DNA of 64,000 nucleotides from NCBI RefSeq assembly GCF_024223415.1, contig NZ_CP100500.1; one strand, 5' to 3'. A program made the position numbers. The stretch comes from Escherichia coli. Lineage in GTDB: Bacteria > Pseudomonadota > Gammaproteobacteria > Enterobacterales > Enterobacteriaceae. Of the stretch, positions 30,301 through 33,300 are shown one piece after another. How positions within the stretch are numbered: the first letter of the stretch is position 1; the number at the start of each line of letters is the position of its first letter.

Positions 30301-33300
30301 GGATCTCGGCGCAGGTACGCATGTTGAAGTCATTGCGATAGAAGGGATAACGCTGATCATCCGTGCGGTCATCGCCTGATGCGACGCTGACGCGTCTTAT
30401 CATGCCTACAAAATATGCCCGAATCGTAGGCCAGATAAGGCGCTTGCGCCGCATCCGGCATATAGCCGAGTAGAGGCAAAATTACTCTTCCCTGCCTTTA
30501 CCCATACTTTTTTGGTCTTCATCCGGATAGTGTTTTTTTAGATATTCCAGGACGTTTTTATTGACCTTGTGTTGGGTATACACCCACCCTTTCCAGTAAT
30601 CAGGCTGGTCCAGGTAAACTTCTGGCGGAATGGTGAAATCAGAAAGCGTTAACCATTCGGCTAACAGATCGGGGTTTCGTTTCTGTATCAACTGCAACAG
30701 CATAATCAGCGACATGGCAGAGGCAGGAGCCGTACTATCGCCGCTTAAATACTTCCACACTGTCGACCGGTTCGAACGAAAAAGGATCGGTAGCAATGCC
30801 CGGTCCAGATTCATTTCATTAAAAATCTTCTCAAATTCATTCATTTAAATTTTCCTGCCTGGCGTAAACCTCTTAAAAATTGAGATTTATCAAAGAAACG
30901 CATTTTAGCACACATCAGGAACCGCTTCACGTTTAGTCCAGAAACAGAATTTATTTCGCTTATCAAAACAAGTCTTTACTCTTTTTTACATTGAAAGAGC
31001 ACGAAATGTTTTCCTTTTTTATTTATAAAAGAAACAATTTTTGTTTCTTATTGGTGGTGTTTACGCTTACACCAAACAAAAATGCGCTTTACATCACATA
31101 AATGGCGGCGTAGATTTCGATCAAATTGCAACGCAGTTTATTTCTTAAAACAATATTATTTGTTTCTTATAGAAACATTAATACGACTTATTTTGAACAA
31201 GAGAAAATGAATGAAAACTGTAAACGTAGCTTTACTGGCACTCATAATTTCAGCAACATCCAGCCCTGTTGTTTTAGCTGGTGATACCATTGAAGCAGCG
31301 GCAACAGAGCTTTCAGCCATTAACTCTGGCATGTCGCAATCGGAGATTGAGCAGAAGATTACCCGCTTTTTAGAACGCACAGACAACAGCCCCGCTGCGT
31401 ATACCTATTTGACTGAACATCACTACATCCCTTCTGAAACACCTGATACCACTCAGACTCCCACTGTCCAGACAGATCCTGACGCAGGACAAAAAACCGT
31501 TGCCGCTACAGGTGATGTACAGACAACTGCCCGTTATCAGAGCATGATCAACGCCCGACAGTCTGCGGTAACTGACGCCCAGCAAACGCAAATTACAGAG
31601 CAACAGGCGCAGATCGTAGCCACACAAAAAACGCTCGCCGCGACTGGAGATACGCAAAATACCGCGCATTATCAGGAGATGATTAATGCCAGACTGGCGG
31701 CTCAAAATGAGGCTAATCAGCGCACCGCCACTGAACAAGGGCAGAAAATGAATGCGCTGACAACCGATGTGGCAGCACAACAGCAAAATGAAAGGACTCA
31801 ATACGATAAACAAATGCAAAGTCTGGCGCAGGAGTCTGCCCAGGCACATGAACAAATTGACAGCCTGTCACAAGACGTAACCCAAACGCACCAACAGTTA
31901 ACCAACACCCAAAAACGGGTTGCAGATAACAGCCAGCAAATTAACACGCTCAATAACCATTTCAGTTCGCTAAAAAACGAAGTTGATGACAATCGTAAAG
32001 AAGCCAATGCGGGAACTGCATCTGCCATCGCTATCGCCTCACAACCACAGGTTAAAACCGGTGACGTGATGATGGTGTCAGCGGGAGCGGGAACCTTCAA
32101 CGGTGAATCTGCGGTGTCTGTCGGAACATCATTTAATGCCGGAACGCATACGGTACTTAAAGCCGGTATTTCTGCGGATACACAATCTGATTTCGGCGCA
32201 GGTGTCGGCGTGGGATATTCGTTCTAATATTTCAATCCTCAATATAAATAAGAGCAAGGAAGCTTGCCGGGTTCACCTCTTCATTAATTTGTACATTATT
32301 TAAGGTTAACAATGATGAATAGCTCCATTAAATCGTTTTCCCTGCTGGCGGTTATATTACTGGCTGGCTGTAGCTCACCCGCTTCCCGCATCGCAGATTG
32401 CCAGGCGCAGGGCGTCAGCCATGACACCTGTTATCTCGCAGAACAGCAGCGCCAGACGGCTATTTTAAGTGCTTCCGAAGCGCAGGCATTTAAAAATGCA
32501 GAAGCCGCACAACATGCCCAGGCGGCAAAGAAAGCCATTTATAAAGGATTTGGCATGACCTTTAGAATGAGCAGTAAAAACTTTGCTTATCTCAATGATT
32601 CATTATGTGCAATTGATGAAGACAATAAAGATGCCACTGTTTATCAGTCAGGTCTGTATAACGTCATTGTTTATCATCACACAGGAAAAGTCGCCTTAAT
32701 GAAAGAAGGCCAGTTCGTGGGTTATTTAAAATGAAGGAGCAAAGGAAAATACCCCTGACGCATATTATGATTATCGGTGCGTTTATTTTTGCCTTCTTGC
32801 AAGTAGTATTATTAGCCTCCCTGGTTCACGCTGTGAATGTTAACAACGAAATCCAGGAAGGCTTATTTCAGTCGGGGCGCATTATGGTAGAAAGTTTGCA
32901 GCATATTCTTTCGGTGCAAACGGGAATTAACTGATTTTCACCCCGCCCGATGATGACAGCAGCCGGAGAGATTTTCGATAATCGGGCAGTCGGCACTGTC
33001 ATCACCGGGGCAGGCATTCGCCAGCGCCAGTAGCTGGTTGCGCATAGATTGCAGTTCTTCGATATGCCGTTCAATCTCCGCCACCTTCTCCAGCGTGCGA
33101 CGTTTGACGTCGGCACTGTGACGCTGCGGGTCGTTAAACAGATTCACCAGCTCGCCGCTCTCTTCCAGGTTAAAGCCCACCTGGCGCGCCTGGCGCAGTA
33201 AGGTCAATTCGTTGAGATGCTGCTGCGTGTAGGTTCGATAACCATTTTCGCTGCGCATCGGCGGCGTCACCAGCCCCTTCTCTTCATAGAAGCGAATGGC

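Follow-up and report, generated by a model that had tools for sequence, protein, structure and literature searches.

O-island 29 of Escherichia coli as an accessory chromosomal cassette encoding a predicted headless trimeric autotransporter, a conserved lipoprotein and a likely regulator

We present an analysis of an accessory island located between ybbJ and cueR in a stretch of 64,000 nucleotides of the Escherichia coli chromosome (NCBI RefSeq assembly GCF_024223415.1, contig NZ_CP100500.1), which we refer to as the window. The island occupies positions 30380–32937 and contains four open reading frames (ORFs), which had been listed in an initial annotation of the window and were all reproduced at the same coordinates by our ORF listing: a 120-aa ORF on the minus strand (30482–30844) and, divergent from it on the plus strand, a 338-aa ORF (31211–32227), a 140-aa lipoprotein ORF (32312–32734) and a 67-aa ORF (32731–32934). 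The initial annotation overlooked that this module is the published O-island 29 (OI-29; S-loop 43) of enterohaemorrhagic E. coli O157:H7 and that its central gene product, GmrA, has been described as a transcription factor. Our preferred interpretation, which we regard as probable, is that OI-29 is a chromosomal accessory cassette encoding a trimeric autotransporter, its envelope partners and a helix-turn-helix (HTH) regulator, and that its effect on motility is indirect. The locus itself is known; the architecture of the cassette is the new detail.

The published work was reached by a literature search with the EDL933 locus tag, which led to Yang et al. 2018 (PMC5826968), and the identity of the module with OI-29 follows from the exact fit of the published deletion primers to the window. 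The lambda-Red deletion arms for OI-29 map to 30332–30370 and 32938–32975 and those for gmrA (z0639) to 31172–31210 and 32228–32265, in both cases with 0 mismatches. In K-12 MG1655 the two genes meet without any spacer, the cueR stop being at 514400 and that of ybbJ at 514401, so that 30380–32937, exactly 2,558 bp, is the insertion relative to K-12; the DNA is absent from the K-12 backbone, in agreement with the initial annotation. The final two codons of ybbJ also differ, the protein ending in AVIA in island-bearing strains and in AVSS in K-12 (window 30368–30379 versus L058:3402–3413; prefixes of this form denote fetched loci), so that the boundary of the insertion or deletion falls within the ybbJ terminus rather than exactly where the stop codons meet.

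The insert is AT-rich, as had been noted, with a GC content of 43.8% compared to 54.2% for the whole window. Direct reading of its left edge, immediately 3' of the ybbJ stop, reveals a pair of inverted repetitive extragenic palindromic (REP) units resembling a bacterial interspersed mosaic element (30380–30481, unstranded), in accordance with the earlier description. Bases 1–81 of the module match many further loci in E. coli genomes at 85–89%, and the O157 copy of the module, which has 98.8% identity across 96% of its length with the same gene order and flanks, begins to match at query base 96 and lacks the REP stretch. A structured RNA in the island was considered and rejected, Rfam yielding sub-threshold matches of the naRNA4 (REP-derived) type at the left edge only. 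A prophage origin was likewise rejected; the island contains no integrase or phage genes and its PHROGs matches are to adhesin-type stalk and anchor families only. Nor does a role in anti-phage defence find support, PADLOC being empty for three of the proteins and returning coiled-coil noise alone for the autotransporter.

The central 338-aa ORF is assigned to gmrA by the mapping of the deletion arms and has the features of a trimeric autotransporter. It begins with a Sec-type signal peptide (residues 1–23, 31211–31279; MKT / VNVALLALIISATS / SPVVLA↓GD) identified by reading of the sequence and a hydropathy check, with distinct n, h and c regions, a VLA↓G site at residues 21–24 and a hydropathy of 2.5; N-termini resembling signal peptides are kept in most homologues, including the Escherichia alleles. 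The only significant Pfam domain is YadA_anchor (PF03895) at residues 279–338 (32045–32224), covering model positions 1–60 of 60 with an E-value of 2.6e-11, which bears out the initial proposal that the C-terminus is a YadA anchor. Residues 244–337 align with solved anchors in the PDB, namely those of AtaA (1.3e-7), Hia (6e-6) and YadA. The anchor, with four beta-strands per protomer, ends in GVGVGYSF, in which the alternating hydrophobic V-G-V-G-Y-S-F with terminal Phe has the form of the beta-signal read by the beta-barrel assembly machinery (BAM). Between the signal peptide and the anchor lie an N-terminal region of ~70 residues and then a stretch rich in Q, A and T, where residues 102–267 contain zero Pro and two Gly and reach a moderate heptad score by a crude scoring. 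The internal repeats that had been reported for this Q-rich stalk are confirmed by self-alignment as two copies of a ~45-aa unit (AATGDxQxxAxYQxMINA, residues 92–176, 31484–31738), with residues 92–131 aligning to 137–176. The motif occurs twice here and three times in E. whittamii; tandem repeats at the DNA level were sought in the autotransporter gene and none were found, so that the repeat is seen in the protein alone.

The remaining matches of the protein are all of coiled-coil type (SMC, ATG16, JetC, DndD). Pfam families for YadA heads, necks or stalks are not detected in it, and Pfam, NCBIfam and PDB sequence searches return no DNA-binding family. Among Escherichia alleles of 338, 415, 471, 579 and 594 aa the anchor is 88–98% identical, compared to 53–62% for the passenger, and such a combination of conserved anchor and variable passenger is common among surface-exposed proteins. 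RefSeq and UniRef name the 338-aa protein a 'YadA family autotransporter adhesin', and ECs0548 was listed as a 'Saa-like protein' among adhesion genes (Ogura 2007). Taken at the level of sequence, the evidence supports the architecture of a short, headless trimeric autotransporter. It resembles the short E. coli trimeric autotransporters Saa and the prophage-encoded Eib, in which a YadA-type anchor follows a coiled-coil stalk, as is predicted here, and residues 92–338 match the PHROG 'adhesin' family phrog_17426 (E 9.4e-23), which we take to consist of Eib-like proteins. In contrast to Saa and Eib, the protein in the window has no detected YadA head, neck or stalk Pfam domain, and its gene is located not on a prophage or plasmid but in a cassette on the chromosome, together with genes for an HTH protein, a lipoprotein and a small membrane protein.

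The 140-aa ORF downstream (z0638) has a lipobox, LLAG↓C, at residues 17–20 that fits the pattern [LVI][ASTVI][GAS]C, and its Cys is invariant in 21 sequences. The residue at position +2 is Ser, and the 20 aligned relatives have S, T, Q or V and never Asp, from which an outer-membrane location is predicted. The 67-aa ORF, which is annotated in RefSeq, overlaps the lipoprotein stop through ATGA, and its own end is 3 nt short of the convergent cueR stop at 32938; the overlap supports translational coupling of the two genes. With basic residues in its first six positions and a hydrophobic segment at about residues 14–32 (mean Kyte-Doolittle hydropathy 2.65), the product is a predicted single-pass inner-membrane protein with the N-terminus inside. 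The initial annotation had described this pair in the same terms, down to the start/stop overlap and the 3-nt distance to cueR, and had called the partner proteins uncharacterised, in agreement with the lack of any Pfam, NCBIfam or PDB match. An assignment of the lipoprotein to TraV or to an XAC1346-type chaperone was discarded, as the NCBIfam resemblance (E 0.003) spans only the signal peptide and Cys-pair region and falls far below the curated cut-offs. Identity with the MliC/PliC lysozyme inhibitors is not supported, the likeness being at the level of the fold alone. The three annotated OI-29 genes are expressed in DMEM (Dulbecco's modified Eagle medium) with values of 20–96 reads per kilobase per million (RPKM; PMC5826968 supplement).

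A precedent for a small lipoprotein encoded beside a trimeric autotransporter in Enterobacterales is the SadB-SadA pair of Salmonella and E. coli, in which SadB is an export helper in an operon with SadA (Grin et al. 2014, PMC3953254). As in SadB, an N-terminal helical part is followed by a C-terminal beta domain. The two systems differ in that the lipoprotein gene in the window is downstream and not upstream of the autotransporter gene, in that its product has 140 aa compared to ~24 kDa for SadB, and in that it carries Ser at +2, predicting the outer membrane, where SadB has Asp and is retained in the inner membrane (PMC3953254). In Rahnella, Serratia silvae and an Enterobacterales metagenome-assembled genome (MAG), the gene coupled to the lipoprotein stop encodes, in place of the 67-aa membrane protein, a conserved soluble protein of 70–80 aa (...DQFKHLPPEQQY.CL..L...GH.ATLSKF...; L012:6408–6650, L016:6408–6626, L017:6408–6647, L021:6489–6704, L024:1317–1526), so that different genes can fill the third place of the cassette.

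The divergent 120-aa ORF had been regarded merely as encoding a small protein, but its predicted model has a lambda-repressor-type HTH fold of the XRE/Cro type, which makes it a likely regulator of the cassette. Curated HTH families give no significant match to it; the only Pfam match is MqsA_antitoxin at E 0.12 and NCBIfam has none. Compared with known small HTH regulators of the XRE/Cro-C1 group, such as Aca2, C-proteins and the C-terminal domain of MqsA, it has extra C-terminal helices specific to a small family confined to Enterobacterales. Between this gene and gmrA is an AT-rich control region of 366 bp (30845–31210, unstranded; GC 30.6%), close to the ~365 bp initially given. It contains six copies of AGAAAC/GTTTCT, including two palindromes at 31030–31048 and 31162–31176, compared to a mean of 0.23 in shuffled sequences, none of 500 of which reaches six. 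The positions of these repeats are kept in E. whittamii and Escherichia sp. E1V33, with partial conservation in Pseudocitrobacter and Symbiopectobacterium, and we consider them a candidate operator. A consensus scan also finds a promoter-like site, TTTACA-17-TAGATT, on the plus strand upstream of the autotransporter gene (31088–31116), and the element CTTTACATCACA...GTAGATT is found again between the genes of the Pseudocitrobacter loci L002 and L006. A terminator scan gave a count not above the shuffled expectation.

The conservation of the cassette was surveyed with a lipoprotein profile on one genome per species, and the loci so obtained were searched with phmmer/hmmsearch and Pfam. An ORF with a YadA anchor lies directly upstream, in the same orientation, in 18 of the 33 fetched loci that contain the lipoprotein at full length; of the 19 sequences that result when the window is included, 17 have the Pfam anchor at E<=1e-3 and 18 at E<=0.1. 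The linkage extends over Escherichia, Pseudocitrobacter, Enterobacter, Phytobacter, Rahnella, Ewingella, Yersinia, Pantoea and Lelliottia, and a homologue of the 120-aa HTH protein is divergently oriented in 9 loci. The suggestion that the small proteins are dedicated partners of the autotransporter gains support from this linkage of the lipoprotein to YadA-anchor genes across genera.

Within E. coli, the segment encoding the lipoprotein and the 67-aa protein is found in 1413 of 5426 complete genomes, always on the chromosome and in single copy, so that at least 26% of complete genomes carry the island and the module is accessory, as had been proposed, and not a set of universal core genes. 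The whole module (>=80% coverage) is present in 1236 complete genomes; the longer autotransporter allele in H6 brings module coverage to just 79%, and the difference between the two counts is due at least in part to such longer alleles. All four ORFs are kept in other Escherichia species and in Pseudocitrobacter, which shows that they are not chance ORFs. The ybbJ-cueR junction is also where the cassette lies in E. whittamii and Escherichia sp. E1V33. Whereas in Escherichia it lies downstream of ybbJ, a Pseudocitrobacter MAG has it between fetA and qmcA, upstream of qmcA (L006:3313–8770), Serratia silvae has an autotransporter-less version just upstream of qmcA (L021:5300–8680), and Symbiopectobacterium has a degraded copy ~2.4 kb upstream of qmcA. 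The qmcA-ybbJ-cueR neighbourhood is thus a recurrent home of the cassette across genera, which suggests either long residence with rearrangement and loss or transfer via flanking homology. Yang et al. proposed four independent acquisitions of the island (PMC5826968); its position at or near qmcA-ybbJ-cueR in several genera argues instead for old residence with repeated loss.

Two variants of the cassette were noted in the same loci. Pseudocitrobacter faecalis has it at a different chromosomal site (L002:2766–4532 and 7050–8936), where an additional ORF of 588 aa separates the autotransporter from the lipoprotein and a large serine recombinase is encoded ~1.3 kb downstream; this arrangement hints that the cassette may be mobile. 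E. whittamii has an extra 409-aa ORF after the 67-aa gene and before cueR (L007:6709–7938), as does Escherichia sp. E1V33 at the equivalent place (L005); it has no counterpart in the window.

Under the interpretation that we prefer, the precursor of the 338-aa protein would be exported by Sec and its 23-residue signal peptide cleaved, after which three C-terminal four-stranded anchors would form a 12-stranded outer-membrane barrel, inserted through BAM by recognition of the terminal YSF. The passenger of ~255 residues would then be displayed on the surface as an N-terminal cap followed by the Q/A/T-rich putative coiled-coil stalk, in which the copy number of the 45-aa repeat is variable. The autotransporter gene is apparently co-transcribed with those of the predicted outer-membrane lipoprotein and the small inner-membrane protein, which may serve as envelope partners or helpers of the autotransporter, and the 120-aa XRE/Cro-like protein would control the cassette through the AGAAAC/GTTTCT repeats. 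Of this picture, the analysis demonstrates which island it is, how its domains are arranged, that its synteny is conserved and that it is accessory; the localisation, trimerisation, operon structure, helper role, regulator binding and indirect action on motility are deduced from these.

Several points weigh against this interpretation. Foremost among them are the published experiments on GmrA, which report specific shifts in electrophoretic mobility shift assays (EMSA), a 7.75-fold enrichment in chromatin immunoprecipitation with quantitative PCR (ChIP-qPCR), loss of flagella, complementation and a gain of motility in K-12 (PMC5826968). Deletion of OI-29 left adherence to HeLa and Caco-2 cells unreduced (PMC5826968), so that an adhesin role is unproven. 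Surface localisation and trimerisation of the 338-aa protein, like the binding of the regulator to the AGAAAC repeats, are predictions, and the count of promoter sites in the control region by consensus scan is not above chance in comparison with shuffled sequences. The lipoprotein matches SadB and YajI neither in sequence nor in fold, homologues of the 67-aa protein are confined to Escherichia and Pseudocitrobacter, in equivalent position, and 14 of the 33 full-length lipoprotein loci have no adjacent autotransporter.

The last of these points bears on the likeliest of the alternatives, namely that the lipoprotein and the 67-aa protein are mere neighbours with unrelated envelope functions and not dedicated helpers. 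The 14 loci, in which the lipoprotein family stands alone between housekeeping genes, belong to Klebsiella, Raoultella, Erwinia, Pluralibacter and others. The lipoprotein resembles neither SadB nor TpgA, an 84-nt gap with a hairpin separates its gene from that of the autotransporter, deletion of z0638 has no motility phenotype (PMC5826968), and the RPKM of z0638 is below that of gmrA (PMC5826968 supplement). Against this, chance does not easily account for 18 other loci in which the lipoprotein gene adjoins a gene of the rare YadA-anchor class, given that their passengers are very different and their chromosomal sites differ, and on balance we consider an unrelated neighbourhood unlikely. A 2026 preprint reporting a global search for autotransporter helpers, in which the presence of a YadA head domain was a condition, found SadB and TpgA only; headless proteins such as the 338-aa one probably fell outside its set, and the association was probably missed for that reason.

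The second alternative is that GmrA is a transcription factor, as stated in the only functional paper on the central gene, where it is described as a cytoplasmic transcription activator (Yang et al. 2018, PMC5826968). Deletion of gmrA lowered the transcript levels of fliA, fliC and motA as well as flagellar number, gmrA alone complemented the mutant, K-12 carrying gmrA was more motile, epistasis with fliA was reported, and the motility phenotype was identical across eight strains (PMC5826968). His-tagged GmrA shifted a fliA promoter fragment in EMSA with competition, FLAG-tagged GmrA gave the ChIP-qPCR enrichment, and the authors cite a DNA-binding domain predicted by CDD in a supplementary figure (PMC5826968); a coiled-coil match of SMC type is a plausible source of that prediction. 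Reviews repeat the transcription-factor label, and the searchable literature yielded no paper linking GmrA to trimeric autotransporters. These data stand against a protein that starts with a Sec signal peptide and ends in a YadA anchor, which covers the whole Pfam model and aligns with anchors of known structure; no DNA-binding family is found in Pfam, NCBIfam or PDB for the protein, and its internal matches are coiled-coil artefacts. Its gene sits in an envelope-protein cassette kept across genera, and its passenger is hypervariable, which would be unexpected for a transcription factor that recognises a core promoter. The constructs themselves are informative in this respect. Mapping of the primers places the start of the pET-28a insert at the ATG at 31211, so that the His tag precedes the signal peptide, and the 3xFLAG tag (primer annealing at 32206–32224) is fused straight after the terminal Phe338. 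From what is established on Sec targeting and on the C-terminal beta-signal that BAM recognises, both tags are expected to divert the protein from its normal pathway by obstructing export or insertion. The published binding data would therefore describe mislocalised protein. We consider that the genetics of gmrA may well be sound, that a secreted protein of the outer membrane is unlikely to bind the promoter directly, and that the effect on fliA and motility most likely arises indirectly, through an envelope effect on flagellar regulation. The published label is accordingly doubtful, and we judge it improbable that GmrA acts as a transcription factor in the sense proposed.

The relatives of the cassette offer a different kind of connection to regulation. 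In three species of Rahnella and in Ewingella, the autotransporter at this place in the cassette has at its N-terminus a conserved HTH-like segment of 41 residues, with the consensus (E/D/S)RN(T/A)(Q/E)II.A(Y/F).AGN.NK.ELA(R/H)YFGVS.(S/T)T(I/V)RRVL, which leads straight into a hydrophobic core resembling a signal peptide and an AxA site. The sub-threshold matches of the segment are all to HTH families (HTH_28, the transposase HTH of IS630/IS256, FixJ/LuxR and sigma-70 region 4). Nucleotide differences between species in this segment fall mainly at third codon positions (for example, 6/3/27), which indicates that it is translated. An exhaustive profile search found 19 cluster representatives with the segment at the N-terminus; most of the 14 that were read end in YadA-type anchors, and the remainder look truncated or frameshifted. 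One HTH-segment autotransporter, beside a second autotransporter and a lipoprotein homologue, comes from an assembly labelled E. coli. Together with those of Rahnella and Ewingella, these autotransporters are at L012:4734–5936, L016:4204–5922, L017:3750–5933 and L027:4136–5866, and also P0135–P0150 and L061:4001–5965. Tandem repeats of the HTH-like unit also occur in unrelated proteins. To our knowledge, no other autotransporter has been described with an HTH module preceding its signal peptide. In the window the profile finds no such segment at E<1, upstream of the gene or elsewhere, and a TGA stop directly precedes the ATG of the 338-aa ORF; a remnant of the Rahnella-type extension was therefore rejected.

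These relatives raise the notion that the autotransporter cassette is more than an adhesin locus and serves as a regulatory device coupled to secretion, to which we give little credence at present. If it were true, cleavage by signal peptidase could leave a cytoplasmic HTH-bearing peptide that reports export to the transcription machinery. A related alternative holds that the 338-aa protein has a dual role, being a genuine autotransporter of which a cytoplasmic pool, precursor or processing fragment also acts on gene expression. This would partly reconcile the GmrA paper with the autotransporter architecture, and in Rahnella, Ewingella and others a translated HTH-like segment is indeed physically joined to this autotransporter family. 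The E. coli protein, by contrast, is without that segment, as the empty profile and the preceding TGA indicate, and no DNA-binding family is detected in its mature part, so that we regard a dual role as very improbable. Finally, the initial proposal of a composite adhesion locus formed by OI-29 and the neighbouring type I secretion system (T1SS) island (a 6,925-aa ORF with ABC, HlyD and TolC-like genes) is rejected, given that the two islands occur independently: strain JNEC-KY173 (L060) has OI-29 but only a HlyD remnant beside ybaT, and O157 keeps OI-29 intact while the giant adhesin gene is a pseudogene. The OI-29 deletion, moreover, brings no change in adherence to HeLa or Caco-2 cells, and the OI-29 genes are shut off on contact with HeLa cells (PMC5826968).

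We return to OI-29 as an accessory cassette for an autotransporter with envelope partners. The analysis documents that a published 'transcription factor' has a complete autotransporter architecture. It also adds to the known locus the conserved linkage of an autotransporter with a lipoprotein from an uncharacterised Enterobacterales family, which makes this lipoprotein a candidate, open to experiment, for another type of autotransporter partner besides SadB and TpgA, the third of its kind.

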